Origin: a bacterium
Lineage (GTDB): Bacteria > Sysuimicrobiota > Sysuimicrobiia > Sysuimicrobiales > Humicultoraceae
Direction: 5' to 3'
Assembly (NCBI GenBank): GCA_041497675.1
Contig: JBGQGY010000023.1
Location: 1-36,444, forward strand
DNA: 36,444 bases
This document shows, in pieces, positions 302 through 36,444 of the stretch. Position 1 is the first letter of the stretch. Every line of letters begins with the position of its first letter. The position numbers were made by a program, and so were the translations under genes. Below the pieces are notes generated by a model. It had not been told where the DNA came from. It was given only the letters and a program-made list of their open reading frames with translations, and made no database searches.

Positions 302-311
302 AGGGGTTACG

Positions 312-4648: not shown

Positions 4649-4659
4649 GAGGTGTGCCG

Positions 4660-5328: not shown

Positions 5329-5342
5329 TAGCAGGAGCGCCT

Positions 5343-7987: not shown

Positions 7988-7991
7988 GCGG

Positions 7992-8729: not shown

Positions 8730-8741
8730 GGCGCTCCCTCC

Positions 8742-9859: not shown

Positions 9860-9932
9860 GGAAGCCGCCCTCCCAATGCCAGCATAGGCCGGGGCCACCT
9901 GCCGGCCTATCGGACGTAGGCTGTATTTGACG

Positions 9933-11803: not shown

Positions 11804-11821
11804 GCGGGGTCTCCTATCCGC

Positions 11822-12379: not shown

Positions 12380-13083
12380 CGGTGCTTCTCCCTCGCCGTG
12401 GTGATGTACGTGAGGAACTCGCGGTGCTTGACCATCTCGGCCGCGGACACACCCTTCTCGAACAGCGCGCCGGTCGGGCAGACCTGCACACACTTGCCGC
12501 ACGAGGTGCAGGTGTCGGACGTGCCCCATGGTTGGCCCAGGTCGATGATGACCCGCGATGCGTGCCCGCGCCCGGCGACGTCCCACGTGTGGGCGCCCTC
12601 GACCTCGTCGCAGACGCGCACGCACCGCGTGCACATGATGCAGCGGTTGTGGTCGACGACAAAACGCTCGTGTGACGCATCGACGTGCCGCTCCGGCGCG
12701 CGGTACGGATACCGGACGTGCGTCATGCCGACCGCATAGCCAATGGTTTGCAAATCGCAGTGGCCGTTGGCCACGCAGACGGAGCAGATGTGATTGCCCT
12801 CCGCGAAGAGCAACTCCACGATCATGCGGCGGTACGCCTGCAGCCGCGGCGAGTCGGTCGTGACCTCCATGCCTTCGGCCACCTTCGTGACACAGGCCGC
12901 GACCGGTCGGCTCGCCCCCTGCACCTCGACCATGCACAGGCGGCAGGCGCCCACCTCGGACAGGCCGTCGAGATGGCACAGCGTGGGAATCGTGATGCCG
13001 TGCTCGCGCGCCGCTTCTAGGAGCGTCTCGTCCTCGTGGGCGCCGACCGGCGCGCCGTTAATGGCCAGCGTCTTGACGCTCAC
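12367..13083 (-). CDS. hoxU: Diaphorase Fe-S subunit HoxU
   Basis: IPTLCH...GACRLC...AAC [2Fe-2S]; [29 protein letters not shown] and [16 protein letters not shown]-coupled to hoxF. Confidence 0.95.
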
Positions 13084-14726: not shown

Positions 14727-15217
14727 GGTGTGCCCGCCCACTGCCGCACCCGCGCGACGACCTCGGCGGTACTCCGCGCGCCGGTGATCTCACCGTCGAA
14801 GACGACCACGGGTGCCTGGTTGCACGGCCCCAGACAGCGCACGGCGTGCACCGACACCACCCCGTCCGATCCGGTGGTGCCGGCCCGTACGCCGGTCGCG
14901 TGTTCCACGGCGGCGAGGACGTCGTCGGCACGCTTCACATAGCAGGCCGTGCCGGTGCAGACCGTCACCCTATGACGGCCGGGTGGGGTCAGCGAGAAGA
15001 AATGGTAGAAGGTCGCCACGCCGTACACGCGGCTCAGCGGAGTGGCCAGCCCGTGCGCGACATACGCGAGCACCTCGAGCGGCAGGTGGCCGAACCGGCG
15101 TTGGGCGACGTGCAGTACCTCGATCAGGCCGTCGGGTTGGCGTCCCTGGCGTCCCATCGCCTCGTCCAGTTCGCGATAGCGCGGGTCGAAGGCGGCGCGG
15201 TCCTGCGCGGACGTCAT
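14723..15217 (-). CDS. hoxE: HoxE (NuoE-like [2Fe-2S] subunit)
   Basis: LIEVLHVAQ, SRVYGVATFYHFF, CTGTAC...CLGPC. ATGA-coupled to hypB. Confidence 0.93.
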   Translation of the reverse strand: MTSAQDRAAFDPRYRELDEAMGRQGRQPDGLIEVLHVAQRRFGHLPLEVLAYVAHGLATPLSRVYGVATFYHFFSLTPPGRHRVTVCTGTACYVKRADDVLAAVEHATGVRAGTTGSDGVVSVHAVRCLGPCNQAPVVVFDGEITGARSTAEVVARVRQWAGTP

Positions 15218-15882
15218 GACCGGTGCCCCCGCGGCTGCCCGACGATCCACTCGATCCACGGGTTCAGCCCGTCGCCCGTCGAGGCCGAGAGCGCAAACAG
15301 CGGCGCCTGCGTGACCTGCCGCAGGCCTTCTGCGAACGTCTCCATGGAAAAGTTGGTGAACGGCAGCAGGTCGATCTTGTTGAGGATGACGGCATCCGCG
15401 CGGGCAAAGGTGGAGGGGTACTTCCACGGTTTGTCATCGCCCTCCGGCACGCTCGCGACCACGACCCGCAGGTGCTCGCCGAGATTGTAGGCCGCCGGGC
15501 ACACCAGGTTGCCGACGTTTTCGATGGCCAGGACGTCGAGATCGGTCAACGCGAGACGGGTCAGCGCGGTGCGGACGAGATGCGCGTCGAGATGGCAGGC
15601 GTTGCCGACCAGACGCGTCTCGATCTGCACGGCGGGCACCCCGCACCGGGAGAGACGCTCCGCGTCACGGGTGGTGGCGATGTCACCCTCGATGACCCCA
15701 AGGCGAAGGCGCGAGCGCAGGAGCGCGGCCGTGCGCTCGAGCACCGCAGTCTTCCCGCTGCCCGGCGATCCGATGAGGTTGAGCGCCAGCACGCCGGCGG
15801 CGTCCAGCGCCGCACGGACCTCCTCGGCCAGCGCGTCGTTTGCACGCAGCACGCGCTCGACCACCTCGACACGCATCGTCAT
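15214..15882 (-). CDS. hypB: Hydrogenase nickel-insertion GTPase HypB
   Basis: GSPGSGKT, IEGD, CHLDA, ENVGNLVCPA, EGDDKP-x-KYP, NKID. No His-rich N-terminal extension. Confidence 0.95.
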   Translation of the reverse strand: MTMRVEVVERVLRANDALAEEVRAALDAAGVLALNLIGSPGSGKTAVLERTAALLRSRLRLGVIEGDIATTRDAERLSRCGVPAVQIETRLVGNACHLDAHLVRTALTRLALTDLDVLAIENVGNLVCPAAYNLGEHLRVVVASVPEGDDKPWKYPSTFARADAVILNKIDLLPFTNFSMETFAEGLRQVTQAPLFALSASTGDGLNPWIEWIVGQPRGHRS

Positions 15883-16121
15883 TCCCCCTCCAACCACGTG
15901 AGGCGCAGGTCGGCGCCGTCGGCATCTTCGATGTCGAGCACGGCCCGCCCCAGCACGGGCCCTTCCCGCAGGATCTCAAACGCCATCGCCAGCGCGTGCG
16001 TGGCGACGCCACTCAATCGACCGACGCGAACCCCTACCCTGTTCACCGCCCGCAGCCCGTGATTGGCGGCCGCCACGGAGGCTTCGTTCAGCAGCGAATC
16101 GGCCAGCGACAGTTCGTGCAC
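15879..16121 (-). CDS. hypA: Short HypA-like nickel metallochaperone lacking the zinc finger
   Basis: MHELSLA Ni-binding N-terminus, VGRLSGV, A-x-L-x-I, C-terminal G-x-DLRL-x-x-LE. Only 80 aa, with no cysteines. SD AGGGAG upstream. Confidence 0.85.
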   Translation of the reverse strand: MHELSLADSLLNEASVAAANHGLRAVNRVGVRVGRLSGVATHALAMAFEILREGPVLGRAVLDIEDADGADLRLTWLEGE

Positions 16122-16133
16122 CGCCGTCTCCCT

Positions 16134-16898
16134 CTAGAACGTCTGATTGGCCAGCGCGAGCATGCAGCGTGTATAGCGCTCCAGGTGCATCGCCTGCGCG
16201 GGCGTCAGCACCCAACACGCCCATCGCCAGTGAAACGCCAGGATCTGGCCCGGCGCCGCGCCGTCCAGGAACCGATCGTCGCCGATCGCCCTGAGAATGC
16301 GTACGGGTTGCGGCGCGCCGAAGTCCAGCCGTCCATCGTGGCTGACGATCGGACGATAGGATACCGTGAACGCCTCCGGGTCCATGGTGGTGATGGCGCC
16401 CCAGCCGATCCGGCAGTGGTCCAACCCGTCGGACAGCGGCCTGCCGGTGCGGCGCCAGACGTCAAAGACATGGAACGCGTGGTGCGCGCGGGCGCCGGCG
16501 ATCGGCTTGCCCACCAGGAGGTCGAGTGTCGACGGCCGGACTCGCCCGCGAAAACGCTCGTGTAGGTGCTGCGCGTAGCGCGGCCAGTCCACCCGCTCTA
16601 ACAGATCGTTGCCAATCCAGTATGCTTCGACGACCCGCGCGTCGAGCGCGTCGGCGATTCCGTTGGCGGCCGCGATGAGCTTCAGATAGGGGTAGGCGCC
16701 TTCAAAGGTTCGCAGGTGGCGTCGCAGGCCCTGATCGGCGGTCTGTTCCTTGAGATAGGCGAGCAACTCGGCGTTGACGTCTCCGCCGCAGTATCCGAGG
16801 TGGTTGGGCATGAACGCGAACCGCGCGAACAACAGCATCCCGTTGAGAGACGCGGCGCCGCTCGCTTCGGAGGTCGACAGTGTTGGCGCTTCTCGCAT
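16134..16898 (-). CDS. Cys/His-motif protein resembling DUF6390 (hydrogenase-cluster associated, function unknown)
   Basis: FARFAFMPNHLGYCG, FEGAYPYL-x-LIA, VVEAYWIGN, HHAFHV, DHCRIGWG, HWRWAC. Family assigned from memory of these motifs, not from a search. Confidence 0.75.
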   Translation of the reverse strand: MREAPTLSTSEASGAASLNGMLLFARFAFMPNHLGYCGGDVNAELLAYLKEQTADQGLRRHLRTFEGAYPYLKLIAAANGIADALDARVVEAYWIGNDLLERVDWPRYAQHLHERFRGRVRPSTLDLLVGKPIAGARAHHAFHVFDVWRRTGRPLSDGLDHCRIGWGAITTMDPEAFTVSYRPIVSHDGRLDFGAPQPVRILRAIGDDRFLDGAAPGQILAFHWRWACWVLTPAQAMHLERYTRCMLALANQTF

Positions 16899-16907
16899 CA
16901 CACCCAC

Positions 16908-20596: not shown

Positions 20597-21316
20597 CTAC
20601 TGGGGTCGAGAATCTACGCCGAACACGGACCGCGCATCCGCCTGACGATTGGGTATTGCACTGTCTGGCCGTACTTGCGCGGGCAAGGCGGCCAGATGCA
20701 CTACCCGGAGGCCCCTTTTACCCAGCGCCTGAACCAACGGGACGGGATTGTCGGTGTCCACGCGGACGATGGCCAGCCGCTCGTGCTCCTGCGAGTAGGT
20801 GGCTATCGAGGCCAGCTGCAATCCTGTCTCGTCAGCCACGGCCGCGATCTCCGCGACGGCCTTGGGATGGCCGGTGAGATCGACGACGAGACGGGTACCC
20901 GGCCCACGGACGCCGGTCAGGTCCACGAATGCCTGGAAGATGTCGCTTTCGGTGATCACGCCAATCAAGATGCCGTCTTCTACCACCGGAAGCCCGCCGA
21001 TCTTTTCCTGGCGCATGACCAGCGCCGCCTGCTCGATAGGCTGGTTGGGCAAGACGGTAATCGGATTGGGCGTCATGATTTCCTTGACGCTGGCGCGCAG
21101 CAGCAGCCCCGGCGTTTCCCAGGCTCCGAGCGGCGTGGCGCGAGAGGGCAGCGCCCGCATCAGATCAGTCCAGCTGACGATGCCAACCAGGCCTCCCTTC
21201 TGGAGAATGGGGACGCGGCGGATATCGTAGTGGCGCATGAGCCCGTGGGCCTCGGCGATCGAGCCCCGAACATCCATCGTGATCGGCGGGGTCGTCATCC
21301 GGTCGCGTACGAGCAT
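20597..21316 (-). CDS. CBS-pair + ACT domain protein (AcuB-like)
   Basis: MLVRDRMT, IRRVPIL, GIVSWTDL, IGGLPVV, GVITESDIF, ACT-like C-terminus. Confidence 0.88.
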   Translation of the reverse strand: MLVRDRMTTPPITMDVRGSIAEAHGLMRHYDIRRVPILQKGGLVGIVSWTDLMRALPSRATPLGAWETPGLLLRASVKEIMTPNPITVLPNQPIEQAALVMRQEKIGGLPVVEDGILIGVITESDIFQAFVDLTGVRGPGTRLVVDLTGHPKAVAEIAAVADETGLQLASIATYSQEHERLAIVRVDTDNPVPLVQALGKRGLRVVHLAALPAQVRPDSAIPNRQADARSVFGVDSRPQ

Positions 21317-21328
21317 CGCGCTCCCCCC

Positions 21329-21832
21329 TCAGTCGTGCCCCATCTGGTCGCCGACCGCGAGGGCGTGTACGACTTCAGCCTCGGACAGGTGACGGCGAAG
21401 CAGAGACACGTAGACTTCTTCTTCCTTCAGACAGTGGACTTCAACCAGCGCACGGATCTGATAGGCGAGGATCCGAGCGCGATCGATCAACGATGGATCG
21501 GCGGCGCCCGCCTCAATCTGGCCCGCCAGCCGGATGAACTCCGAGATGCGGGCGAGAATCTCGCGGTGGTCGATCAGCATCGTGGCGTTGACGTCGCCGT
21601 GGCGCCGGACCAGGTCACCAACACCCGGGTAGAAGGTGATCTCTTCCCATTCCGCATGGGGGACCAGCACCTGACGGAAGAACTGTTCGGTCTCGCGTAG
21701 CATCTCCGCGGCGGCGGGGCCGGCGCCCTGTTGCAGACGGTCCATCGTGCCGGTGAGCACCGCGAGTCCTGCGCCGAGCTGCGCGTGTTCGGCTTTGAAC
21801 CCCTCAATCAGCGACGTCTTGGCCTCGCTCAT
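21329..21832 (-). CDS. Hemerythrin-like (HHE) di-iron domain protein
   Basis: EH...HAEWEE-x-x-FYP...DH...HCLKEEEVY His/Glu pattern. SD GGAGGTG upstream. Confidence 0.85.
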   Translation of the reverse strand: MSEAKTSLIEGFKAEHAQLGAGLAVLTGTMDRLQQGAGPAAAEMLRETEQFFRQVLVPHAEWEEITFYPGVGDLVRRHGDVNATMLIDHREILARISEFIRLAGQIEAGAADPSLIDRARILAYQIRALVEVHCLKEEEVYVSLLRRHLSEAEVVHALAVGDQMGHD

Positions 21833-21922
21833 GGCCCCTCACCTCCCAAGTGCTTATCTGCATCCTAGGAGACGGCAGGGGGACCGGCCATCGGGTTTTG
21901 GACCGATTTTGGCAGGATGGCG

Positions 21923-22378
21923 TCAGTTCGCGCCGCGCAGCAGCATCACGGCGGTCACCACCAAGGCCACCCACAGGGCGGCACTGGTGGCGCACCAGGC
22001 GCACACCGCGTGGAGCACGCCCACCTGGAGCCACACCAGGTAGGCGGAGAAGGCGGCGCCGAAGACGACCAGGCCAAAGAGGGCTGGCGACAGCGTCGCG
22101 CGGTGCCTTGGCCTGAGGGCGCCCGTCAGTGCCACCGCCCAAACGGCCAAGTAGAGCAGCAGGCCCCACCCGGCGACCGGGAGACCCAGCATCCGGGCGT
22201 ACGGGCTCGTCGCGACCCGTTCGCAGGCGCCTGTCAGGCAGATCGGCGCGTAGCCTCGGAGCGCGGCCAGCAGTAGATAGCCAGACACAGCCAGACCGGC
22301 TGTCGCGAGCCCCGACGCCGCCCACCAGATGCGGGCGCCTGTCTCGCTAGCGCTTGAGCGCGGTTTCGATGGCCCCAC
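21923..22378 (-). CDS. Vitamin K epoxide reductase (VKOR) family, DsbB-like partner
   Basis: C-x4-C loop (CLTGAC), V-x-x-SPYA-x-x-LGLPV, TM helices, active-site CAWC. Start is uncertain (GTG 22378 with GAGGTG upstream). Confidence 0.88.
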   Translation of the reverse strand: MGPSKPRSSASETGARIWWAASGLATAGLAVSGYLLLAALRGYAPICLTGACERVATSPYARMLGLPVAGWGLLLYLAVWAVALTGALRPRHRATLSPALFGLVVFGAAFSAYLVWLQVGVLHAVCAWCATSAALWVALVVTAVMLLRGAN

Positions 22379-23030
22379 GAAACACCTCGATCGGCTGGGC
22401 GCCGGCGACCGGCTCGCCATTGATGAAACTTGTGGGGGTGCCGCTCACGCCGCGGCGCTTCCCTTCTGCGAAATCGGTGTCGACGCGGCCTCGGGTCGCC
22501 CCGCGGCGCACGCACTGTGCAAAGGCTGCCTGATCGAGACCGATCTTGGCAGCGGCCCCCTCGAGGTCACCCCTGGTGCGCAGCGCGCTCCGGGAGGCCA
22601 GCGCGAACAACTCGTCGTGATAGGCCCAGAACTGCTGCTGGTCCGCGGCGCACTCGCTGGCCGCCGCCGCGGTGACGGAGAACCTCTCGTCGACGATCGG
22701 GAAGTGGCGATAGACCAACCTGACGGTCCCGGGTTTGACGTAGTCGGCGATGATCGCAGGTTCGACCTGCGCGGCAAAGTCGGCGCAGTGGCTGCAGAGA
22801 AAGTCTGAGAAGACCTCGATCGTCACCCGCGCGGCGGCGTTGCCCATCGTCGTGCCGCCGGTCGTTGCCGCTGGCTGGCGGCCGGGGGGTGGTGCGGGCG
22901 GCGTCGCTGTGGACCAGTGGATCACGGCCACCGCAAGCGCCGCCGCCGCGGCCGCGACACCCACGATGAACACCGCCCGATTCGTCCGGCGGCGCGCGGC
23001 GATTTCTCGTTGACGCTGGCGTGCAGACAT
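22347..23030 (-). CDS. Membrane-anchored DsbA-family thiol-disulfide oxidoreductase
   Basis: N-terminal TM, G-x-x-x-A-x-VTI-x-x-FSDFLCSHC, YRHFP, GVSGTPTSFING cis-Pro loop. SD AGGAGG upstream. Confidence 0.9.
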   Translation of the reverse strand: MSARQRQREIAARRRTNRAVFIVGVAAAAAALAVAVIHWSTATPPAPPPGRQPAATTGGTTMGNAAARVTIEVFSDFLCSHCADFAAQVEPAIIADYVKPGTVRLVYRHFPIVDERFSVTAAAASECAADQQQFWAYHDELFALASRSALRTRGDLEGAAAKIGLDQAAFAQCVRRGATRGRVDTDFAEGKRRGVSGTPTSFINGEPVAGAQPIEVFRGAIETALKR

Positions 23031-23041
23031 CAGGCTACCTC

Positions 23042-23869
23042 CTAGATCTGGTCGCGCCCGTCGAAGAGCGCCACGGCGATCAGCACCGGCGCGACGGTCC
23101 ACAGGGCCAGCGCGCCGGCCAGCAACGCGGTCGCGCCACCCGATCCAAATCGCGCGATCAGGAAGCCGCCGACCGGTCCCAGCATCTCCAGGGACGAATC
23201 GAGCAGCAGCAGCGCGAGCAGGCGCGCGATGTCAACCGGATTGAGCAGCAAGAGCGCCGCGAGCAGCCGTGTCCCCGCGCCGGCCACCGCGCCGGCGCCG
23301 ATCAGCATCAGGTCGAAGAAGACCACACTGGCGAACCAGACCACGAGGGCCATGGCCGTCGCCCGGGTCCTGCTGCGCGCGGCAACAGCGATGACGATGC
23401 CGATGGCCAGGTAGACGGCGGCCAGGGCCAAGGAGATGCCCAGGAAGGCCAGGTATTGCAGCCCGCCGGTCGCGCCGGTCGCCAACCCGACCAACACACC
23501 GGCCAACCCGAAGCCGGTCAGGGTTGCCAGCCCGATCGCCGCGAGCGAGCCCACGAATCGACCGATGAGCAGTTCGCTGCGTTCGACCGGCTGCGCCAGG
23601 AACAGTTCCAATGCGCCGGATTCGCGGTCGCCGCTGATGCCCGCGCTGCCCAGTAGCAGGGCGACCAACGGCACCAACAGCAAGCACAGGTTGATGAGGC
23701 TGGCGGTGGTGCGGCCGTAGCCTTCGAGGCCGACAGCGCCGATCGTAGACAGCCCGATCAGCGACAGCCCGAGCGCCAGCACGGCGAACAGGGCTCCGTA
23801 CGCGAGGAGCCACCGGTTGCGTATGGCTTCGCTCAGCTCATACCGAGTCATCACGAGAATGGCGTTCAT
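23042..23869 (-). CDS. nosY: ABC permease NosY
   Basis: E-x-x-EAIRNRW, LVPLVALLLG...DRESGALELFLAQPV-x-R, LLLNPVD-x-x-R. Downstream of nosF. Confidence 0.9.
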   Translation of the reverse strand: MNAILVMTRYELSEAIRNRWLLAYGALFAVLALGLSLIGLSTIGAVGLEGYGRTTASLINLCLLLVPLVALLLGSAGISGDRESGALELFLAQPVERSELLIGRFVGSLAAIGLATLTGFGLAGVLVGLATGATGGLQYLAFLGISLALAAVYLAIGIVIAVAARSRTRATAMALVVWFASVVFFDLMLIGAGAVAGAGTRLLAALLLLNPVDIARLLALLLLDSSLEMLGPVGGFLIARFGSGGATALLAGALALWTVAPVLIAVALFDGRDQI

Positions 23870-24756
23870 CGATTGGTGGCCTCGCCGAGACGGCGGGCGT
23901 CGATCGACGGCTCTTCGAGATGCACACCGAGCGGATGCAACCCGGCGGCAGCCACGGCGGCGAGGAGATCGAACGCCGTGCCGACCGGTGTCGTAGCCAC
24001 GACGGTGCTTTGCGTCTGCGTGAACTGCACTCCCGGCCGCGCTTCCAGCAGATCGGCCAGTTCCTTGTGCCCGGTGCCGTTGAGCGTGAAGATGACCCGC
24101 TGCTGGACGGCCATGCCCATGCCGTCTGGCCGGCCGCTGTAGACGAGCCGGCCGCGGTCGAGCACCATCGCGCGTGAGGCCACGGCCAGCGGGTCGGCGA
24201 CCAGGTGCGTGGCCAGGACGATCGTTCGACCGGCTTTCGCCAGCGCCTCCAGGTCGCGATGCAAGGCGCGCCGCGCCTGCGGATCCAGATGCGCCGCCGG
24301 TTCGTCGAACAGGATGACCGCAGGATCTGCCTGGAGCGCCGTCGCGAGCGCCAACCGCTGCCGCATGCCGCCCGACAGCGTCCGCACCGCGGCGTCGGTC
24401 TGGGCCTCGAGCCCGACGCGCGTGAGCCACTCGGCGTCGCCGCGGCGCAGACCGCGCAGGCGCGCGAAGAGATCCAGCACTTCCAGGCAGGTCAGGTCGG
24501 GTGGGAAGGAAGGACGCTGGGGCACATAGCCGATCAACCGGCGCGCCGCCTTCCCGTCGTTCAGCACATCGTGGCCACCGACGGTCGCCGCGCCTTCAAA
24601 CGCCAGCAGCCCGGCCAAGCACCGCAACAGGGTCGTCTTCCCGGCGCCGTTCGATCCGAGCAACACCGCGAACGCGCCCGGCTCGATCGTCGCCGTGACG
24701 CGGTCGAGCGCGGTCGTGGCGCCGAAGCGTTTGGTCAGGTCGCGAATCGCGATCAC
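23866..24756 (-). CDS. nosF: ABC ATPase NosF
   Basis: Walker A GSNGAGKT, LSGGMRQR, FDEP, H-loop ATH. GTGA-coupled to nosD. Confidence 0.92.
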   Translation of the reverse strand: MIAIRDLTKRFGATTALDRVTATIEPGAFAVLLGSNGAGKTTLLRCLAGLLAFEGAATVGGHDVLNDGKAARRLIGYVPQRPSFPPDLTCLEVLDLFARLRGLRRGDAEWLTRVGLEAQTDAAVRTLSGGMRQRLALATALQADPAVILFDEPAAHLDPQARRALHRDLEALAKAGRTIVLATHLVADPLAVASRAMVLDRGRLVYSGRPDGMGMAVQQRVIFTLNGTGHKELADLLEARPGVQFTQTQSTVVATTPVGTAFDLLAAVAAAGLHPLGVHLEEPSIDARRLGEATNR

Positions 24757-26753
24757 CGCGATCGCCGTCCCGGTCTGAGCGCGGCGAGGCTCAGGGCCGC
24801 CGGAACGAGCAGGAGTGCGCCGATCCAGAACACGCCGGCGTGTGGGGCGGTCTCCGAACCCGTCGAAGGGACCGGCGGCACTCCGCTGGCGGGTGGCTTC
24901 ATCAGTGGGGCGCGGTCCTCCACCACGGGCGCGGCACCGAGCAACGGGAGCATCCGTGCGGCCGTGTCGATGGCATGGTGGGCCGGGGTGAAGAGAAACG
25001 CCTGCAGCGCCGGAACGCGATCCGCCAGGTCTTCCAGCAGGTCGGTTCGGCGGTAGGGGACGTCACCAACGCCGTCACCGGCAACGTCAAAACCGGTGTA
25101 GTCGCCCCAGTAGTTGCCGCGACCGTCCACCCACCAGTGGTTGGCATCGGCCCGTACGGCGCCCCGCGATTGGACCTGCCGCAGGTTCTCGACGATGGTG
25201 TTCTCAGTAACGGTGATCGCCGCGGTGCTCATCAGCGAGAAACCGGTCTCGTTGAAGGCGATCAGGTTCCGCTCGACCTTGACCCAGCCGTCGGGCGTCG
25301 ACGGCGCGTTGTCGAACTCCAGCGCGATTCGGTTGCGGACCACGCGGTTCTCGCGGATCAGGACGCGGTCGACATCTTTGAAGATCAGGCCGACGCCGAT
25401 CTCGGCCGACCGGCTGCCCTCGAACGTGTTGCCCGCCAGCGTGACGTCGGCCGAGTTCATGACGGCTCCGCCCACCGCGTTGTCCTTGAACACGTTGGCG
25501 CGAAACGCGTTGTTGTTCGAGTACATGTAGTGGATTCCATAACGGCATCCCGAGACGGTGTTGTGTTCGACGGTTATCAGGTCCGAGAACGAGATGTAGA
25601 ACCCGTCCTTCCCCCGCGTGATGCGGTTGTGACGCACTTGCACGCTCCGCGCTTTCCACAGATAGACCGCATGCCCGCGCCGCTCCACCGGCAGGTCGGC
25701 GGTGGCGATCGTATTGTCCTCGACGATCGTCCCCGTCGTCCCGGCCAGGTACACGCCAAACAGCACGTCGGTCACCTGGTTGTTTCTAATCACCGCTCGA
25801 TCGCCTCGAACGACAATCCCAGCAGCCTCGCTACTGTATGCCAGCGCGCTGCCTCGAATCACGAACCCCTCCAGCCGCACATCCGGTCCGGTGATGACCA
25901 CAACGTCGCCTCGCCGTTCGCCGTCGATCACCGGATAACCCTCGCCGCGGAGCGTGATCGGTCGTGAGAGGACCAGCGGGCCGCGATACCATCCCGCCGG
26001 CACGGTGATGACCGCACCGGGAGGCGCCGCCGCGACGGCCGCCGCCAGGTCGAACGCGCTGGGCGGCGCGGCATGGGCAGCGAGCGGGAGGGCCGTGAGC
26101 GCCATGATGAACGCCAGTCCGGTGACGGCCGCGGCCGTCATGACCTGCCGCCGCGCGCGACCGCCGGCGGGCAGCCGCGGCCCCAGGGTCAGCAGCAGCG
26201 CGCTCAGCGCGAAGAGGAGCAGCCCCGGCCCGGGCCAGGCCGTGACGTTGAAGTTCATCACCACCGTTGGGCCGATCACCTTGGGGGTAAACGCGGGCAT
26301 CCGGAACGCCGCGTTCGGGTTCAGCGTGTGGCCGAACACGTAGAGTCTATACTGCAGATCCACGAGAAATCCAAACGGCAGCGCCCAGGCTCCCAAGACG
26401 ACCAATAGGCGGAATGCCCTCCACGCTACGAAGGGGAGGGCCAGGATCGCCAGCGCGAGCATCGCGACACCCGGGGTGAAGAGCCGCAGTTCCGGGAACA
26501 CTTCCTCCAACCCTTCGCTTCGCTCGCGATCCTCACCGGGCTCGGCCCCGGGTATGGGCCGCATCCCGATATAGTGATTGAGGGTGTTTAACTCGTCGAC
26601 ATCGCCGCGGGTGCCGCGTCCATCGATGAGGAGTCGTACCCCCTGAGGATACTGCGGCGCGTGCAGCGTCATCGTCCACAGCGGCAGCGCCGCGCCGGCG
26701 AGCAGCATCGCGAGCGCTCCGCCCGTCACCGCGATCCGTTGAAGGCGATTCAT
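24753..26753 (-). CDS. nosD: Fusion of a NosB-like membrane domain (N-terminal) and NosD copper-maturation beta-helix (C-terminal)
   Basis: N-terminal PLW-x-x-x-L-x-APQYP-x-G, LNTLNHYIGM, FGH-x-L-x-P-x-A. C-terminal RYGIHYMYS, GNYWGDY-x-GFD-x-x-GDGVGDVPY, D-x-x-PLM. One uninterrupted 666-aa frame. Confidence 0.88.
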   Translation of the reverse strand: MNRLQRIAVTGGALAMLLAGAALPLWTMTLHAPQYPQGVRLLIDGRGTRGDVDELNTLNHYIGMRPIPGAEPGEDRERSEGLEEVFPELRLFTPGVAMLALAILALPFVAWRAFRLLVVLGAWALPFGFLVDLQYRLYVFGHTLNPNAAFRMPAFTPKVIGPTVVMNFNVTAWPGPGLLLFALSALLLTLGPRLPAGGRARRQVMTAAAVTGLAFIMALTALPLAAHAAPPSAFDLAAAVAAAPPGAVITVPAGWYRGPLVLSRPITLRGEGYPVIDGERRGDVVVITGPDVRLEGFVIRGSALAYSSEAAGIVVRGDRAVIRNNQVTDVLFGVYLAGTTGTIVEDNTIATADLPVERRGHAVYLWKARSVQVRHNRITRGKDGFYISFSDLITVEHNTVSGCRYGIHYMYSNNNAFRANVFKDNAVGGAVMNSADVTLAGNTFEGSRSAEIGVGLIFKDVDRVLIRENRVVRNRIALEFDNAPSTPDGWVKVERNLIAFNETGFSLMSTAAITVTENTIVENLRQVQSRGAVRADANHWWVDGRGNYWGDYTGFDVAGDGVGDVPYRRTDLLEDLADRVPALQAFLFTPAHHAIDTAARMLPLLGAAPVVEDRAPLMKPPASGVPPVPSTGSETAPHAGVFWIGALLLVPAALSLAALRPGRRSR

Positions 26754-27223
26754 GACTGCTCCTTCGCCATCGCCGCGAGCAGGTCGTCCAAGGTCATCAC
26801 CGGCGCCTTCGGGTAGGCTCGATGCGCTTCGGCGTTGTCCGCGTATGCGGCGATGTTGTAATTCATCGGAGTCCGGATGACGGGAGATCGCACGTACCAG
26901 GCGTGGGGCGCGTCGATCCAGGCCTCTGTGCCCGCGTCGTGGACGAACCCCTTCGCGTGACCCGATGCGGCCGCATCAGCGCTATGGCGGATCAGGCACC
27001 CGATGTCGTCGAAACGATGGACGGTCGATCCCCCGCGCGTGGCGGCCGCGAACCGCCGGTCGCCGATGATCATGCCGCACTGCTCACAGCGATCGCGTCC
27101 ATAGGCGATCGCCGGGGCGCCGCTCTCGTCGCCCTGACGGGTCGCCAGTGCCCACAGTGCGGGGGCCGCCGCCGCGGCCGCGGCCCCACCGATCGCCACC
27201 CTGAGGAATCGTCGTCGTGTCAT
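26750..27223 (-). CDS. nosL: NosL-family copper chaperone with a twin-arginine leader
   Basis: MTRRRFL leader, CEQCGMII, FDDIGCL, WI-x-A-x-x-A-x-YV, RTPM. Confidence 0.88.
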   Translation of the reverse strand: MTRRRFLRVAIGGAAAAAAAPALWALATRQGDESGAPAIAYGRDRCEQCGMIIGDRRFAAATRGGSTVHRFDDIGCLIRHSADAAASGHAKGFVHDAGTEAWIDAPHAWYVRSPVIRTPMNYNIAAYADNAEAHRAYPKAPVMTLDDLLAAMAKEQS

Positions 27224-27278: not shown

Positions 27279-29252
27279 CTACGGCTCGACCACGAGCCAC
27301 CCGTGCATCTCGAGGTGGAGCGCCGAGCAGAACTCGGTGCAGTAGTGGCTGAACGCCCCAGCCTTGTTCGCGACGAATCGCACCGTCACCGTCTCACCGG
27401 GGTCGATGCTGAGCTGGATATTGTACTGCGGGATCGCGAACCCGTGGGTCGCGTCCTTTTGCTTCTCGGTGTTGGTGATGTGCAGCACGACGGTGTCACC
27501 CTTCTTCACGCGGATGATGTCGGGCCGGAACGAGCTGCGCATCGCGGTCATCCAGACCGTCATGGTGTTGCCTTTGCGCTCCGCGCGCTCCTTGCCGCGC
27601 TCGACGAAGTAGGGGCTCTTCTCCATCGTCCGGATGTCGGTGCCCATCGGATAGACGTCCCACGCCTTGATCTTGTCCATCCGAATGATCTGAGCGTAGT
27701 GGGGCTCGGCGTTCGCCACCGGCATGTCGTAGATGACCTTCATCTTGGGCGCGTTAAGGTCAATCAGTTGCAGGTTCTGCGGGTGCAGCGGGCCGACGGT
27801 TGGGAAGCGGTCGACCGACCACTTATTCAGCGCGACGAGATACTTGCCCGCGGGGCGAACGGTGTCACCTTCGGCCGTCGCGAGATGGCCGATGTTGTAG
27901 TGGACCGGCACCTTGTCGACGAGTTTCCATGCCTGGTCGCCCTTGAAGTACGGCTCGCCGAGCGACCACTTGGCGACTGCGCTCTCGACGAACAGGCTGG
28001 TGTAGGCGTACCCCTGGTTGTCGAACTGCGTGTGCAGCGGGCCGTTGCCCACCGCGACCCGGCCGGCGACCACCGCGTCAAACTTCAGGATCGGGACGCC
28101 AAACGGGTCCGTACCCTCGAAGTTCTTATCCGCGATCGCCTTCTTGATCTTGTCGATGCTGTAGACGGTCGTGTGCGGGTCGAGCTTGCCCGAGACCACG
28201 ATGTACTGGCCGTTGGGCGCGACGTCCACGCCGTGCGGGCTGCGCGGCTCGGGCGCGAAGTACAGGATGCCCTCGGCAACCGCGGTCTTCAGCGAGATGA
28301 CCCTGACGCCGTTCTTCATCTCGAACTTACCCGCCTTCACGACCTCTTCGGCCTTCTTCCAGTTGATGATGTGGAGGAAGTCAAAGTCCTTGGCCGAGGC
28401 CCCCGCTTCGATCGCCGGTTTGCCCTCCATGTTGCCGCCGGTTGCCATCTCGGTGTTGAACGAGTTGATGAAGCCCCACCCGTCGCTGACCAACTTGCCG
28501 GCGTCGGCCAGATCCTGGCTGTACGGCGGGAGCTCGATCTCGAAGGAGCGCGCGAGATCGATCCGGCCGGTGGTCTTGTCGACCGCCAGCCATGCCGACG
28601 CGCCGCGGTACCGCTCCTTGTATTGCTCCAACGGGGCAAACCCGCCGTCCCATACCATCGGGATCTTGCTCGACACGTGCACATAGTCGGTGTTGGGCGT
28701 CGCGAAGACCCCGCCGTGCGACGTCTGGATGTTGGGGATCTGCAGGATCTGCTTCACCCTGAAGTCGCGGAGGTCGATCATCGCGATCCGGCCGTTGGCG
28801 CGGTCGTTGATGTACAGCCACCGGCCGTCGTACTCGCCGCCGGTCTCCGACAACGCCGGGTGGTGGGTGTCACCCCAGGTCAGCGCGGGGCCGCCGTTGC
28901 TGCCCTCGTCCAGGATCTGCTTGCCCCAGTCGGCGCCGTAGCCGTACCCCTGCCACGGCTCCGGCGAGAAGACCGCGATGACTTTGAGCATGCGCATCGA
29001 CGGCAGGCCGATCGCCAGCATCTGCCCGGAATGTCCGCCGGAGGCGAACATCATATACTCGTCGCGCTTCCCCGGCGGGACGAAGCTCTGCACGGCCGCC
29101 GTGACCTCAGCCGGCGTCAGATTGCGGGTCTGTGCGACGACGCTGGCGTCGGCAAAGGCCACCATCTTGGAAGACGACCGGGCGCCGAAGAGGTAGGCAC
29201 CGGCGACCAGCACCACCACGAGCACTAAAGCCACGATGTTGAATGATTTCAT
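27279..29252 (-). CDS. nosZ: Clade II (Sec-dependent) nitrous-oxide reductase
   Basis: Hydrophobic leader without RR; FASGGHSGQ, GLPSMR, WGDTHHP, SHG, SPHG, GPLHT, EPH (CuZ His ligands); CuA HGF...CTEFCSALHLEM. No C-terminal cytochrome c domain. AGGAG 8 nt before ATG 29252. Confidence 0.97.
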   Translation of the reverse strand: MKSFNIVALVLVVVLVAGAYLFGARSSSKMVAFADASVVAQTRNLTPAEVTAAVQSFVPPGKRDEYMMFASGGHSGQMLAIGLPSMRMLKVIAVFSPEPWQGYGYGADWGKQILDEGSNGGPALTWGDTHHPALSETGGEYDGRWLYINDRANGRIAMIDLRDFRVKQILQIPNIQTSHGGVFATPNTDYVHVSSKIPMVWDGGFAPLEQYKERYRGASAWLAVDKTTGRIDLARSFEIELPPYSQDLADAGKLVSDGWGFINSFNTEMATGGNMEGKPAIEAGASAKDFDFLHIINWKKAEEVVKAGKFEMKNGVRVISLKTAVAEGILYFAPEPRSPHGVDVAPNGQYIVVSGKLDPHTTVYSIDKIKKAIADKNFEGTDPFGVPILKFDAVVAGRVAVGNGPLHTQFDNQGYAYTSLFVESAVAKWSLGEPYFKGDQAWKLVDKVPVHYNIGHLATAEGDTVRPAGKYLVALNKWSVDRFPTVGPLHPQNLQLIDLNAPKMKVIYDMPVANAEPHYAQIIRMDKIKAWDVYPMGTDIRTMEKSPYFVERGKERAERKGNTMTVWMTAMRSSFRPDIIRVKKGDTVVLHITNTEKQKDATHGFAIPQYNIQLSIDPGETVTVRFVANKAGAFSHYCTEFCSALHLEMHGWLVVEP

Positions 29253-29266
29253 GTCCATCCCTCCTG

Positions 29267-29659
29267 TCATGGGTGTCGTGCCAGATCTGCGATCGTGACG
29301 TCGTCGAGCAAACCTTCGAATGCGTGCTGAATCCGGCCGAGCGTCAGACGTACCGGGCAGGGTTGCTTGCACGGGCAGTCGTTCCAGGCGAGGCACCGCG
29401 CCACAACGATGGGACCCTCGATGGCCTCAATGACCTGCCGAACGGTCATCCGTTCAGGCGCCCGGGCGAGCCGCACGCCGCCCCCCGCGCCCCGGCTGGT
29501 GCGGACGATGCCACCCCGGGCCAGCTGCTGCACGACCTTGCCCGCCTGAGCGGGAGGGATGCCGCGCCGGGCGGCAATAGCTGCTGTCTGGCCCGGTCCG
29601 TTGACGGCCAGGTCGAGCAGGGTGCGCAGCGCAAACTGGGTGGCTCGAGTCAATTCCAT
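29267..29659 (-). CDS. Rrf2-family Fe-S transcriptional regulator (NsrR/IscR-like)
   Basis: M-x-LT-x-x-x-x-FALR, wHTH with RGAGGG-x-x-LAR-x-P, IEAIEG, Cys cluster CLAWNDCPCKQPC, TIADL. Confidence 0.92.
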   Translation of the reverse strand: MELTRATQFALRTLLDLAVNGPGQTAAIAARRGIPPAQAGKVVQQLARGGIVRTSRGAGGGVRLARAPERMTVRQVIEAIEGPIVVARCLAWNDCPCKQPCPVRLTLGRIQHAFEGLLDDVTIADLARHP

Positions 29660-32484: not shown

Positions 32485-33906
32485 GTGCCCAGGCTCGACA
32501 AGCGCGAGCGTCTCAAGCAGCCGCACGTTGCGATCCCGAAACGTCCCGCGCACGACCGGGTTGCCGACTTCTGCGAGGTGACGCTCACCTACAGCCCCGA
32601 ACAGGCGATCGCCGAGGCGTCGCGCTGCGTCGAGTGCACCAAAGCGCCGTGTGTTGTGGCCTGTCCGTTGCACAACCCAATCCGTGATTGGCTGATACAC
32701 ACGATGGAGGGCCGTTTCCTCGATGCGGCGCATGTGTCGCAGACGACCAGCAACATGCCCGAGATCTGTGGCCGCATTTGCCCGCAGGACCGGCTGTGTG
32801 AGGATGCGTGTATCGTCGGGGTCAAGCACCCGCCGGTCGCGATCGGCGCGATCGAGAAGTTCATCAACGAATATGCCTTCGCGCACGAGGGTCTGCCGCT
32901 GCCTGCGATCGCACCGCCGAGCGGGCATCGGGTCGCGGTCGTCGGATCGGGCCCGGCGGGTCTAGCGTGCGCCGAAGAACTGACGAAGCGTGGGCACCGT
33001 GTAACCGTCTACGATGCGTACCCGCGACCGGGTGGGCTGCTGCGCTATGGCATTCCGGGCTTCAAATTGGACAGAGCCGTGGTCGATCGCCGTGTGCAGT
33101 ATCTTACACGGTTAGGGGTCGAGTTTGTCGGCAACACGCGGATCGGGCGGGACGTGAGCCTCGACGGGCTGCTCGACAACGGGGTCCACGCGGTGTTCTT
33201 GGGTACCGGCGCGACGGCGCCAAAACGCCCAGGCCTCCCGGGCATCGATCTGCAGGGCGTCGAAGACGCGCTCCCATTCCTCATCCGCAACAATCCCGAC
33301 GGATCAGCGGCCCGGCAGGACGATCTGCGTGGTCGCCGCGTGGTGGTGCTCGGTGGCGGCGACACGGCGATGGATTGCGTGCGGACCGCGAAGCGGTTGG
33401 GCGCCACGACCGTCACGTGCGTCTACCGTCGCGATGAGGCCAACATGCCCGGCAGCCGCCGTGAAGTGCAGTCGGCCAAGGAAGAAGGGGTGGACTTTCA
33501 GTGGCTTACTGCGCCGATCCGGTTCGTCGACAACGGGGTCGGCACCGTGCGGGCGATCGAGTGCGTTCGCATGACGCTGGGTGAGCCGGATGCGCAGGGA
33601 CGCCGCCGGCCCGTCACGGTCGAGGGCAGCAATGTTGAGATTGAGGTCGATCTCGCGATCCTGGCGTTTGGGTTTGACGGCAGCCCGGTGCCCGGCGCGA
33701 GCGGCCCCGAGGTGACGGGTTCACAGACGTACGTGATTGATCAGAGCGCCATGACAACCCGACGCGGTGTGTTTGCGGGCGGCGACGCCGTGCGGGGACC
33801 GGACCTGATCGTAACCGCGATCCGCGACGGCCGCCGCGCCGCCGAGGCGATCCACTCGTATCTCAACACGTTGGATTACCGTGATGGGTCCAGCACGACC
33901 AGATAG
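32485..33906 (+). CDS. GltD/NfnB/SudA-like NAD(P)H-dependent Fe-S flavoprotein
   Basis: EASRCVECTKAPCVVACP, CGRICPQDRLCEDAC, GSGPAG (FAD), YGIPGFKL, GGGDTAMD...YRR (NADPH), FAGGD. Confidence 0.9.
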   Translation: MPRLDKRERLKQPHVAIPKRPAHDRVADFCEVTLTYSPEQAIAEASRCVECTKAPCVVACPLHNPIRDWLIHTMEGRFLDAAHVSQTTSNMPEICGRICPQDRLCEDACIVGVKHPPVAIGAIEKFINEYAFAHEGLPLPAIAPPSGHRVAVVGSGPAGLACAEELTKRGHRVTVYDAYPRPGGLLRYGIPGFKLDRAVVDRRVQYLTRLGVEFVGNTRIGRDVSLDGLLDNGVHAVFLGTGATAPKRPGLPGIDLQGVEDALPFLIRNNPDGSAARQDDLRGRRVVVLGGGDTAMDCVRTAKRLGATTVTCVYRRDEANMPGSRREVQSAKEEGVDFQWLTAPIRFVDNGVGTVRAIECVRMTLGEPDAQGRRRPVTVEGSNVEIEVDLAILAFGFDGSPVPGASGPEVTGSQTYVIDQSAMTTRRGVFAGGDAVRGPDLIVTAIRDGRRAAEAIHSYLNTLDYRDGSSTTR

Positions 33907-34346
33907 CCCACCTGCGTCTCGTGGTCTGGAGAGCAGTCGCCCGTCGTAGGGTTGTACGGGACGTTGCAGTGAAATTTGAACACACCCGCCTTGTTGGCAA
34001 CAAAGGTGAGGGTCTCCTGGCCTTTGGGCCCACCGGGCAGGCGGCCCGTCCCGATGCCGTAGCCCTGGATCTCGAAGCCGTGGGTGGCGAAAGTCAGGTT
34101 CATCACCCGCAGCCGTACGGTGTCGCCGCGGCGCACGACGATCATCGAGGGGTTGAAGAAGTGGTGTCTCGACTCGCCGACGGCGCCGATGCCAGTGATG
34201 ATCACCGACAGCTCAACGGTGGTGGGTGCCGCCTCGGGCGGTACCTGAGCCGGTTGCGGCACTGAGGAGATCGACAGGGCGCTGACCACCAACGCAAATG
34301 CTCCCAACACGACAGCGGCCAGCGCCGAGGACGTTTGAGCGGTCAT
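33876..34346 (-). CDS. Membrane-anchored cupredoxin-domain protein (Gln variant)
   Basis: N-terminal TM, FNPS-x-I-x-V-x-x-GD-x-V, HGFEI, F-x-A-x-KAG-x-F-x-FHC-x10-C-x3-H-x2-Q-x-GYL-x-V. Confidence 0.82.
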   Translation of the reverse strand: MTAQTSSALAAVVLGAFALVVSALSISSVPQPAQVPPEAAPTTVELSVIITGIGAVGESRHHFFNPSMIVVRRGDTVRLRVMNLTFATHGFEIQGYGIGTGRLPGGPKGQETLTFVANKAGVFKFHCNVPYNPTTGDCSPDHETQVGYLVVLDPSR

Positions 34347-34359
34347 CGGAGGTCCGGCC

Positions 34360-34824
34360 TCACCGCGAGGTCACGATCAGGTAGCCACGCATCTGATCGT
34401 GATCGGGCGTGCAGTGCTTCTTGGTAGGATCGTACGGCAACGAGCAGTGGTACTCGAAGACCCCGTTTCGGTCGGCCACGAAGGTCAATCGGTCGCTTTC
34501 CCCAGGGTTCAGGATTTTCGTCTTCTGATTGTACCCGGTCAATTCGAGTTGATGCGCGAACTCATCGGGGTTCGCGACCACCAGATCCACCGTGTCGCCC
34601 TCGCGGACGACCATCATGGTGGGATACCAGCGGTGCGCGAACACCCCCTGACCCGAGAACGTGGCCACGACCATTGAGAGCGATATCTTGGCCGGTGTAC
34701 TAGGCGGCGCGGCGACGCCGGGGCCCCCCCGCGGCCTGGTCGTGTAGACGACGAGGCTCACGAGCAGGGCCAGCCCCGAAAGGATGAGCGCGAAGTATGC
34801 GAGACCACTGCTCTTGGCGTTCAT
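34360..34824 (-). CDS. Membrane-anchored cupredoxin-domain protein (Met variant)
   Basis: N-terminal TM, WYP-x-x-x-VV-x-x-GD-x-V, HQLEL, YHC-x10-C-x3-H-x2-M-x-GYL-x-V. SD GGGAGG precedes ATG 34824. Confidence 0.82.
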   Translation of the reverse strand: MNAKSSGLAYFALILSGLALLVSLVVYTTRPRGGPGVAAPPSTPAKISLSMVVATFSGQGVFAHRWYPTMMVVREGDTVDLVVANPDEFAHQLELTGYNQKTKILNPGESDRLTFVADRNGVFEYHCSLPYDPTKKHCTPDHDQMRGYLIVTSR

Positions 34825-34941
34825 GAACTGCTGTCCTCCCGGATACGACGGTGCCGCCGCGGAACCCCAAATGGTGAACGAAACAAAATGTGCTTCGTGA
34901 TACCCTCGTGGCTCTCCTGGCAACGACCGTCGATTCGAGAC

Positions 34942-34960: not shown

Positions 34961-35038
34961 CGCCCGATGGCGGCGGCTGCGTCGCCGGATTATCGTGTTG
35001 TGTAAGCGACCATGCAACTGGGTCAGCGAGGTGCAGGC

Positions 35039-35626
35039 ATGAGCCACAAGAGGAAACCGACCCGCACCGCACCGCGCAGGCGGACAAACTCTTCCGGCAG
35101 GACGCTGGTGCTGGTCGTGGCGGCGGGCGTCATCCTGGCAGGCGGTGTGCTCCTTGCCGGACGCCTGAGCGGACCCTCCGGAGCGTCCATGGCGACATCG
35201 CCGGGCAACCCCGCACCGGCCGTCGGGTCGGCGCAGGCGTCAGCGATTGCCGTAACCCCTGCGGTGTATGACCTGGGCCGGGTCAGCCAGGCGAAGGGCA
35301 TCGTCACGATTGAACTGACCGTTGCGAACACGGGCGCGGCCGACCTGGTCATTCGAGAAATGGAGACATCCTGCGGATGCACGAGGGCGGCGCTCGTTGT
35401 TGACGGTCGCGCCGGCCCCTGGTTTGGAATGCGCGGCCACGGCGAGTGGCCCACGGGATGGTCGGCGAACCTGCGTCCAGGTCAGCGGGCGACGCTGCGT
35501 GTCCAGTATGACCCCGACGCCCACGGCATCTACCGGGGGGCCATTGACCGCACCGTCGTGATCTACTCGAATGATCCGCGTCGATCAGAGACCCAGGTGC
35601 GCCTGACCGGTACGCAGGTGCCGTAG
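35039..35626 (+). CDS. DUF1573-like Ig-fold protein, membrane-anchored
   Basis: N-terminal TM, YDLG-x-V, N-x-G-x-x-DL-x-I, TSCGCT, L-x-PG, YDP-x-x-HG, SNDP. Confidence 0.8.
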   Translation: MSHKRKPTRTAPRRRTNSSGRTLVLVVAAGVILAGGVLLAGRLSGPSGASMATSPGNPAPAVGSAQASAIAVTPAVYDLGRVSQAKGIVTIELTVANTGAADLVIREMETSCGCTRAALVVDGRAGPWFGMRGHGEWPTGWSANLRPGQRATLRVQYDPDAHGIYRGAIDRTVVIYSNDPRRSETQVRLTGTQVP

Positions 35627-35648
35627 GCCGCCCATCTCTTCCTCCACG

Positions 35649-36062
35649 ATGCGGCGCATTCTGATCGCGGCCGGCGCAGCCAGCGTGCTGATCGCCTCGG
35701 TGGGTCTCTGGGCAGCATGGACCGCTTCCGCCCACCCGGCACTCCGCCTTGAACCGTCCGCCGTGGACTTTGGGCGGCTGGCGCAGCGGGCCACCAGAAC
35801 CGTTGAGGTTCGCAACGACGGGCGAGCGCCGCTGCGCGTGTTGGGGATCAGCACCTCTTGCGGGTGCACGACGGCGGTGATCAGTATGTCCGTGCTGCGT
35901 GCCCGCGGCAGTGCGCGTCTGGAGATCACCTTCGATCCCGCGGCGCACGGACCCGTTCCGGGCCCGGCCCGACATGCCGTGTACCTTCGCACCGACGATC
36001 CCAAGACCCCGGAAGCCGAAGTCGAGGTGCGCGCCGTCGTGGTGAAGGGAGACACGCGATGA
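35649..36062 (+). CDS. Second DUF1573-like Ig-fold protein
   Basis: Signal/TM, DFG, N-x-G-x-x-PL-x-V, TSCGCT, FDP-x-x-HG, TDDP. Confidence 0.8.
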   Translation: MRRILIAAGAASVLIASVGLWAAWTASAHPALRLEPSAVDFGRLAQRATRTVEVRNDGRAPLRVLGISTSCGCTTAVISMSVLRARGSARLEITFDPAAHGPVPGPARHAVYLRTDDPKTPEAEVEVRAVVVKGDTR

Positions 36063-36444
36063 CGCACGCCGCCCTCCGCCCGGCACGGGTGGTGGCGATG
36101 CTTACCGCGGTGGTGCTGCTGGGTTTCGTGATCGCCGGCCTTGTGGACGCAGAACCTGCGCCGCCTGTGACCATCTATTTCAACGGATCCTGCCACGACT
36201 GCGTGCCCTATCTCGATCACGAACTGATCCCGCTGCTGCGCGGACTCGGCGTCGCCGAGATGGTGCGGCGTGACTACATCCTTGAGCGGCGCTGGCGCGC
36301 CGAGCTGGTCGAGCGCAGCACGGCCCTGGGAGTTCCTCCGCAACTGCAGGGCCACATGACCATCTTCATTGGAGACCGGATCATCCTCCAGGGCCATGTG
36401 CCTTCGGGGATCATCCGCGATCTCTTCGCGCCGGCGCAGGCGCA
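36059..36444 (+). CDS. Exported thioredoxin-fold CxxC protein resembling DUF411/CopG (3' truncated; absent from the ORF track)
   Basis: My translation: MTHAALRPARVVAMLTAVVLLGFVIAGLVDAEPAPPVTIYFNGSCHDCVPYL...LGVPPQLQGHMTIFIGDRIILQGHVPSGIIRDLF. ATGA-coupled to the upstream gene; open to the window end. Confidence 0.7.
   Translation, partial: MTHAALRPARVVAMLTAVVLLGFVIAGLVDAEPAPPVTIYFNGSCHDCVPYLDHELIPLLRGLGVAEMVRRDYILERRWRAELVERSTALGVPPQLQGHMTIFIGDRIILQGHVPSGIIRDLFAPAQA

Follow-up and report, generated by a model that had tools for sequence, protein, structure and literature searches.

A pair of small membrane cupredoxins, referred to below as A and B, is encoded in tandem on contig JBGQGY010000023.1 (GenBank assembly GCA_041497675.1) from a bacterium of the Sysuimicrobiota; the window considered here comprises its positions 1-36,444. 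The ligand loop of both proteins resembles that of CuA centres, with ten residues between its two cysteines. Judging from the sequences, A and B very probably bind copper, and it is probable that they are electron carriers. The best overall explanation, which we hold with moderate confidence, is that they are copper electron carriers with a CuA-derived site and with a quinol module as their usual donor.

The following scheme can be proposed. A and B would be membrane-anchored, outward-facing proteins carrying electrons via a Cu2(Cys)2 core, with H91, C127, C138, H142 and an axial Met or Gln as ligands and the extra part of the loop forming an outward hairpin. In the family, they would usually act as electron acceptors of a haem-free module for quinol oxidation, in which an ActC-like NrfD feeds an exported Fe-S protein, NrfC, and would in turn reduce copper terminal enzymes. 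In the window's lineage, the pair would have been relocated beside clade II nos genes, and the Gln of B should lower its potential. The path there would lead from the quinol module, encoded elsewhere, to B, then to A, and then to the CuA centre of NosZ. The parts of this scheme differ in strength. Two coppers per site are slightly more likely than not, NosZ is a tentative acceptor in the window's lineage, and an ordered relay from B to A appears unlikely.

The gene pair and its relatives

The genes and their ligand loops are as follows.

34360..34824, minus strand: protein A, 154 residues; membrane helix (about residues 5-29) and cupredoxin domain, with H64, H91 and C127-x10-C138-x3-H142-x2-M145
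33876..34346, minus strand: protein B, 156 residues; paralogue of A, with H62, H89 and C127-x10-C138-x3-H142-x2-Q145
34390..34446, minus strand: ligand loop of A, C127 to M145; a predicted 132/137 beta-bridge closes a six-residue hairpin within the Cys-Cys loop
33912..33968, minus strand: ligand loop of B, C127 to Q145; the 132/137 bridge is predicted likewise
34835..34839, minus strand: GGAGG, ribosome-binding-like site, 10 nucleotides 5' of the ATG of A (direct reading)

The existence of paired long-loop cupredoxins is confirmed: the upstream His and the loop consensus that the initial annotation had given for both paralogues are found exactly in A and B. The two genes are separated by 13 nucleotides and their products are 38% identical. 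The spacing between the upstream His and the first Cys of the loop is x35 in A and x37 in B. Each protein contains two cysteines, both in the motif, and a single N-terminal hydrophobic segment (19-residue hydropathy peak of 2.5 from residue 8). The Pfam Cupredoxin_1 model gives 28.6 bits for A and 22.2 bits for B (cut-off 27), and no NCBIfam family reached its cut-off for either. A further His (H64 in A, H62 in B) is invariant in both subfamilies. Moreover, an Asp that had been overlooked (D141) directly precedes the last His of the motif. In six-frame open reading frames (ORFs) of the source genome (G000), the long-loop motif occurs four times, always within one of two gene pairs, and 20 shuffles yielded one match. 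The second pair, on contig C26, is of Met/Met type, and the same contig encodes a third paralogue with the motif C-x4-C-x3-H-x2-Q.

Sequence searches show that the ligand set is strongly conserved. With A as query, 195 matches were obtained; all of the 120 listed have a ten-residue loop, and 119 of these are A-type with Met, the remaining one being a probably artefactual A-B join. The 32 matches of B all have the x10 loop as well, with Gln (27) or Met (5) at the axial position. H64, H91, C127, C138, D141, H142 and M145 are invariant in an alignment of 96 A sequences, and the equivalents of H91, C127, C138 and H142, that is both Cys and both His, are invariant in the 96 A, 42 B and 54 wide-family sequences. 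From 1.84 billion representatives, a profile search retrieved 411 proteins at E <=1e-10; among the best 150, which were read, Cys-Cys loops of 4 and of 9-16 residues are found, together with canonical x3 CuA proteins. The second half of the loop reads C-S-P-x-H-x-x-M-x-G, as in stand-alone canonical CuA proteins from the same searches. The Asp before the last His is present in 111 of 115 long-loop and in 28 of 28 x4 domains; of the 43 canonical x3 domains, two at most have it.

The axial position is variable in the wide family. It is occupied by Met (23), Gln (21), Ile (8), Leu (3) or Val (1) in 56 long-loop representatives and by Gln (10) or Met (3) in 13 x4 forms, with at least 24 changes on a wide, weakly supported tree. 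This corresponds to the known series for redox tuning (PMC4059628) and not to the ligands of a Cu(I) chaperone. This tree (160 rows, 92 columns) places the canonical x3 forms among the long-loop forms, with weak support, and does not separate a single from a multiple origin of the long loop. H64 was considered as a ligand for the whole family and rejected, His being found there in only 31 of 47 readable long-loop representatives. Close relatives carry the source labels Armatimonadota or Sysuimicrobiota; the distant ones belong to Nitrososphaerota, Caldarchaeum, Bathyarchaeia, Thermoplasmatota and Chloroflexota.

These comparisons point to a conserved, uncharacterised and apparently undescribed family, present in bacteria and archaea, that would be a variant of the CuA-type cupredoxins. 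The copper-site variant with a seven-residue loop insertion put forward in the initial annotation is supported by the CuA-derived ligand set and from its invariance in homologues. No solved structure of a family member is found among the best 60 matches of each PDB search. A description of the family was not found in the literature, where subscription journals were mostly outside coverage, and the main text of a paper on Sysuimicrobiota (PMC11604079) mentions neither cupredoxins nor copper nor an alternative complex. One candidate A-B fusion, P0005 (259 residues, on a 1 kb contig), was rejected as a probable assembly or gene-call artefact, since the last strand of A is missing; the lack of longer forms among 833 candidates is weak evidence. 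Another protein, P0226, has three domains, two of which are canonical C-x3-C CuA-like domains with an axial Gln.

Around the pair, the 3' end of B overlaps a convergent gltD-like gene by 31 nucleotides. A promoter scan gave three weak sites, none upstream of A. Two sediment RNA runs share 0.05-0.07 of the sampled words, a comparison at word level only. Divergent from the pair (window 35012-36444, plus strand) lie genes for two DUF1573 Ig-like proteins with an S-C-G-C motif and for a CxxC protein, and this arrangement recurs in two metagenome loci (L069, L070).

Gene neighbourhoods and candidate partners

In a survey of 94 genomes of the phylum, 25 pairs were found in 21 genomes (one B is truncated at the end of its contig, and two pairs are identical duplicates between G053 and G054). 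The order is always A then B, and neither gene occurs singly. An NrfD gene is found within 5 kb of twelve pairs, nosZ within 8.6 kb of seven and coxI alone near one, while five have none of the three on the available flanking DNA; coxII/coxI genes are found near pairs in G025, G031, G053 and G054. The main neighbour of the family is thus the quinol module composed of NrfC and an ActC-like NrfD, not nos. The common operon comprises genes for a sensor kinase and a regulator, a type 1 cupredoxin, A, B, the x4-Gln paralogue, NrfC, NrfD and a small anchor protein. Three genomes (G024, G053, G054) differ in that A and B immediately precede nrfC-nrfD, at the place otherwise taken by the x4 protein. 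The neighbouring NrfD is closest to ActC of alternative complex III (E 1e-61 to 6btm_C). Conversely, a family member is found in 22 of 23 genomes with a close NrfD orthologue (the motif was read in 19 of the 22), and the NrfD of the sole exception lies at a contig edge.

The association extends to distant members. Fourteen loci from archaea and Chloroflexota each contain one long-loop gene, with NrfD within 8 kb in eight; seven of these NrfDs are 46-61% identical to that of the source genome, and in three loci the long-loop gene directly precedes nrfC-nrfD. Two other loci, both archaeal (L048 8378-10683 and L050 10430-12741), have or share a trio encoding a CuA cupredoxin, a NapH-like protein and a second CuA cupredoxin. 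Three Nitrosopumilaceae loci have neither NrfD nor the trio. Among 39 annotated metagenome loci of a total of 80 (41 partial matches being outside the count), none reaches nosZ; NrfC or NrfD is found in 10 of 29 Met loci, and in none of the four tandem-type Gln loci, which are on contigs of 1.8-7.9 kb. In two Anaerolineaceae loci, a TlpA-like thioredoxin gene lies 3' of the family gene; PMC6669012 reports that CuA cysteines are kept reduced by TlpA.

Further arrangements were observed at these loci. In the source genome (C26 8617-15048, L001), the Met/Met pair shares a gene run with a type 1 cupredoxin, the C-x4-C paralogue with Gln, nrfC and an ActC-like nrfD. The run also includes a SHOCT protein, a CopD-like gene and genes for cytochrome c maturation, and a multihaem cytochrome c lies alongside it. 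In L042 (11331-12275) and L046 (6751-7593), the anchor protein encoded 3' of nrfD carries an additional, fused cupredoxin domain whose ligands are altered, namely C-x3-C-x3-H-x2-L in archaea and Met for His in the Anaerolineaceae protein. In G030 (L040 7095-11346), such a trio, in which two canonical CuA cupredoxins flank a NapH-like Fe-S membrane protein, immediately precedes nosZ.

The window itself contains a nos cluster.

27279..29396, minus strand: NosZ, clade II Sec-type with canonical CuA (823 bits, cut-off 625); candidate electron acceptor
23042..27223, minus strand: nosL, nosD, nosF-type ABC ATPase and nosY-type permease genes, downstream of nosZ

As the initial annotation had stated, NosZ carries the canonical CuA motif C-x3-C-x3-H-x2-M; its gene, placed there at about 5 kb from the pair, is at a measured 4.5 kb. 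A gltD-like gene (plus strand), a radical SAM gene (minus), a gene for inosine monophosphate dehydrogenase (plus) and an Rrf2 gene (minus) lie in between. In the window, no gene for a c-type cytochrome was found; its two CxxCH matches are in a 48-residue frame and in a hydrogenase small subunit.

The expected association of the family with clade II nosZ holds for the window's lineage (7 of 25 pairs are nos-adjacent) and fails for the family as a whole, where NrfC/NrfD are commoner. Nos as a partner across the whole family was accordingly rejected, 5 of 13 pair genomes having no nosZ match. The electron-carrier role proposed by the initial annotation remains the most likely reading, given the CuA-derived ligand set together with the quinol-module and nosZ neighbours.

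Several findings count against the proposed path to NosZ. Because four genes intervene, two of them on the opposite strand, the pair is not in the nos operon. Among 41 genomes, nosZ is present in 8 of 13 with the pair vs 9 of 28 without it; the five pair genomes with no nosZ match are 69-96% complete. In four nos-adjacent genomes (G016, G022, G041, G042), no NrfD match was found at E 1e-30. Moreover, the quinol module is not the sole route from quinol, because the source genome has a Rieske/cytochrome b pair. Lastly, the direction of electron flow is not given by gene order, and reverse flow towards the quinone pool may occur. No NosZ-like ORF was found among the ORFs picked in the 14 distant loci.

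The Met/Gln difference between A and B had been interpreted as a two-potential relay. As a design of the pair this does not stand, and Met/Gln as a conserved trait was rejected: of 24 readable pairs, 17 are Met/Met and 7 have Gln in B. The Gln-B pairs are nos-adjacent in six cases, the seventh being on a 6 kb contig; the Met-B pairs include all 12 NrfD-adjacent ones and one that is nos-adjacent. In a tree built with the axial residue masked, the Gln forms of B make up one clade (97/96), nested within the Met forms when the tree is rooted on A (92/84). On this phylogeny, the axial Gln of B arose once, coinciding with the move to nos in one lineage. Because the Gln clade is single, Gln and nos adjacency represent one event, not a correlation. 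What survives of the relay is a complementarity with the x4-Gln paralogue, a match to which is found in 10 of 14 Met-B genomes and is missing from 6 of 7 Gln-B genomes (the source genome being in both groups). This distribution, which allows no statistical test because it reflects one evolutionary event, fits a need for one low- and one high-potential carrier, without being proof of it.

Other features of the window were noted. The nosD product (24753-26753, minus strand) has, ahead of the NosD domain, an N-terminal membrane extension of 235 residues with no family-model match; we take it, from the NosB motif, to resemble a nosB-nosD fusion. DsbA-like, VKOR-like and hemerythrin genes follow nosY (21300-23100, minus strand), and a DsbA/VKOR pair also follows nos in G023. 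A low-oxygen island (300-16900) includes genes for a NiFe hydrogenase with NuoE/F-like diaphorase subunits, maturation proteins, 2-oxoacid:ferredoxin oxidoreductase, CBS and Usp proteins, a P-type ATPase and TrkA.

Nature of the site and competing explanations

Structure prediction, suggested as a check in the initial annotation, gave the cupredoxin fold for both proteins (AlphaFold predicted local distance difference test scores of 91.7 for A and 88.0 for B). Both models show a membrane helix, a cupredoxin sandwich, the 132/137 bridge and a short helix at 142-144. Because the bridge is present in both, the x10 loop can be described as an x4 loop plus a closed six-residue hairpin, and this predicted hairpin could leave the two cysteines near the CuA register. 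The A model matches the NosZ CuA domain with Z 12.4 (root-mean-square deviation, rmsd, 1.7; 95 residues aligned), the nitrite-reductase N-terminal domain with Z 12.7, subunit II of ba3 oxidase (1ehk_B) with Z 11.0 and CupA with Z 10.8; the match list of B is nearly the same. In such models, CuA and type 1 sites are not separable by fold alone. Heterodimer prediction with the soluble domains of A and B, each with its own alignment, scored 0.01, the mark to be reached being 0.32, which is not evidence either way. In position, H64 and D141 presumably correspond to the electron-entry patch of the CuA domains of NosZ and CoxII.

The CuA consensus is given as H-X34-CXEXCX3HX2M in PMC6669012. A and B have the cupredoxin fold, a His about 34 residues before the first Cys and two Cys followed by C-x3-H-x2; the axial Met is present in A (96 of 96 sequences) and replaced by Gln in the window's B. 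In type 1 sites, one Cys stands in a short C-xn-H-xm-axial loop; A and B have two invariant Cys and 14 residues from the first Cys to the His.

A dinuclear site of CuA type nevertheless faces several objections. Ten residues separate the cysteines where CuA proteins have C-x-E-x-C, and because this defining spacing fails, A and B are not filed as CuA family members. The hairpin is read from secondary structure only, with no coordinates and so no Cys-Cys distance. The best structural match of A is the mononuclear nitrosocyanin (1iby; Z 13.8, rmsd 2.0, 97 aligned; Z 13.7 for B), and the best PDB sequence matches, within the best 60 rows, are type 1 nitrite-reductase domains (E 9e-11). Natural axial Gln, Leu and Ile are typical of type 1 sites. 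Finally, the DsbA-like and VKOR-like genes after nosY would favour disulfide formation.

These points lead to the main rival, a mononuclear copper electron carrier that would use H91, one Cys, H142 and the axial residue, the second Cys being an extra ligand or a redox switch and the respiratory role remaining unchanged. It is the main rival because type 1 sites have natural axial Gln and Leu ligands, Met/Gln/Leu being a known redox-tuning series (PMC4059628), and because CuA and type 1 sites can be interconverted by loop swaps alone (PMC7480511). The natural Met/Gln/Ile/Leu series of the family matches type 1 sites, as do the top structural and sequence matches. Moreover, the loop begins with C-x-x-P in 97 of 115 long-loop domains, like that of the type 1 C-S-V-P-G-H proteins in the same match list. 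However, the second Cys is invariant and in the CuA register, x4 forms included, canonical x3 forms lie within the long-loop part of the weak tree, and with only two Cys available a disulfide would abolish the type 1 thiolate. We regard a mononuclear site as rather unlikely.

Alternatively, A and B might be copper chaperones, as the initial annotation had also mentioned, or buffers; they would load the CuA or CuZ centres of NosZ, CoxII or other enzymes via the Cys/His site, perhaps with the surface residues H64 and D141. Copper-demanding neighbours (nos; coxII/coxI) are indeed frequent, a CopD-like gene follows the second pair in the source genome, and the chaperone CupA is among the fold matches. 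Three Nitrosopumilaceae members also have a long Met-rich linker with no NrfD in the locus (L051-L053, from Nitrosopumilus and Nitrosarchaeum, where the linker lies between the anchor and the long-loop domain). A loading role is nonetheless less likely because NosL and NosDFY are present in the cluster and a Sco protein in the genome. Furthermore, Cu(I) is poorly bound by Gln, Ile and Leu, and the dominant partner is a quinol module that has no copper of its own. This role is improbable, and weaker than that of an electron carrier. A structural disulfide pinning the hairpin of a metal-free scaffold or adaptor subunit would suit an extracytoplasmic domain with exactly two Cys in a window with DsbA/VKOR-like genes, but is highly improbable, as both His ligands are invariant, the axial substitutions are of ligand type only and the cysteines occupy cupredoxin ligand positions.

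Implications and comparison with known systems

The C-x-E-x-C loop and the axial Met of CuA are usually treated as fixed. To our knowledge, axial-ligand control of the CuA potential has been studied only in engineered mutants, with results that conflict between scaffolds. The present family would offer a natural series of loops (3, 4, 9-16) and axial residues (Met, Gln, Ile, Leu), with Met/Met, Met/Gln and x4-Gln versions side by side in the source genome, and its small soluble domains should express easily. Also new here are the Gln-bearing, nos-adjacent clade, its apparent single origin and its nearly complementary distribution with the x4-Gln paralogue. The pair may feed, through copper carriers, a clade II nitrous oxide reductase that has neither a cytochrome c nor a NosGH gene nearby, which would bear on nitrous oxide sinks in a widespread uncultured phylum. 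In its boldest form, the idea would be that natural CuA centres tolerate an extra hairpin of up to 13 residues between their bridging cysteines and have their potential set by an axial Met/Gln/Ile/Leu series, that in the window's lineage a low-potential Gln site and a high-potential Met site make up an ordered, haem-free copper wire leading from the quinol module to clade II NosZ, and that the Gln of B replaces a lost x4-Gln paralogue; such a combination seems doubtful.

Among known systems, nitrosocyanin is the best fold match of both models and, like them, has a long first beta-hairpin, whereas TIGR03096 gives only 24.1 and 29.6 bits against a cut-off of 142.85. Nitrosocyanin uses Glu/Cys/His/His ligands in a homotrimer whose hairpin caps the neighbour's site, a ligand set unlike the two-Cys, Met/Gln loop of A and B. 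Type 1 cupredoxins whose axial ligand varies (Gln in stellacyanin, Leu in ceruloplasmin; also the N-domain of Hyphomicrobium nitrite reductase, 2dv6/6tfd) provide the best PDB sequence matches and share the axial Met/Gln/Leu; in contrast to them, A and B have another invariant Cys, three residues ahead of the His, with 14 residues separating the first Cys from the His.

The partner module resembles alternative complex III (ActABCDEF; 6btm, 6f0k, 6lod, 8k9e), since NrfD is ActC-like and NrfC matches the Fe-S part of ActB. However, NrfC is a small stand-alone protein of 339 residues that has no molybdopterin-like domain, and no match to ActD (PF11821) was found in the source genome (98.6% complete). 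An ActC-type subunit is present in the C26 module, for which neither a full ActB nor an ActD was found. Cupredoxins stand in place of the cytochrome subunits, and the module is encoded on C26, outside the window. The closest parallels to the site itself are the CuA domains of NosZ (2iwf, 1fwx) and of CoxII (1ehk_B), which have the cupredoxin fold, the ligand order His...Cys, Cys-x3-His-x2-Met and a His-Cys spacing of about 34, CoxII also having a membrane anchor. A and B differ from them by the ten residues between the cysteines (three in CuA proteins), the axial Gln of B and the near-invariant Asp before the last His, and they are encoded by stand-alone tandem genes rather than being fused to an enzyme.

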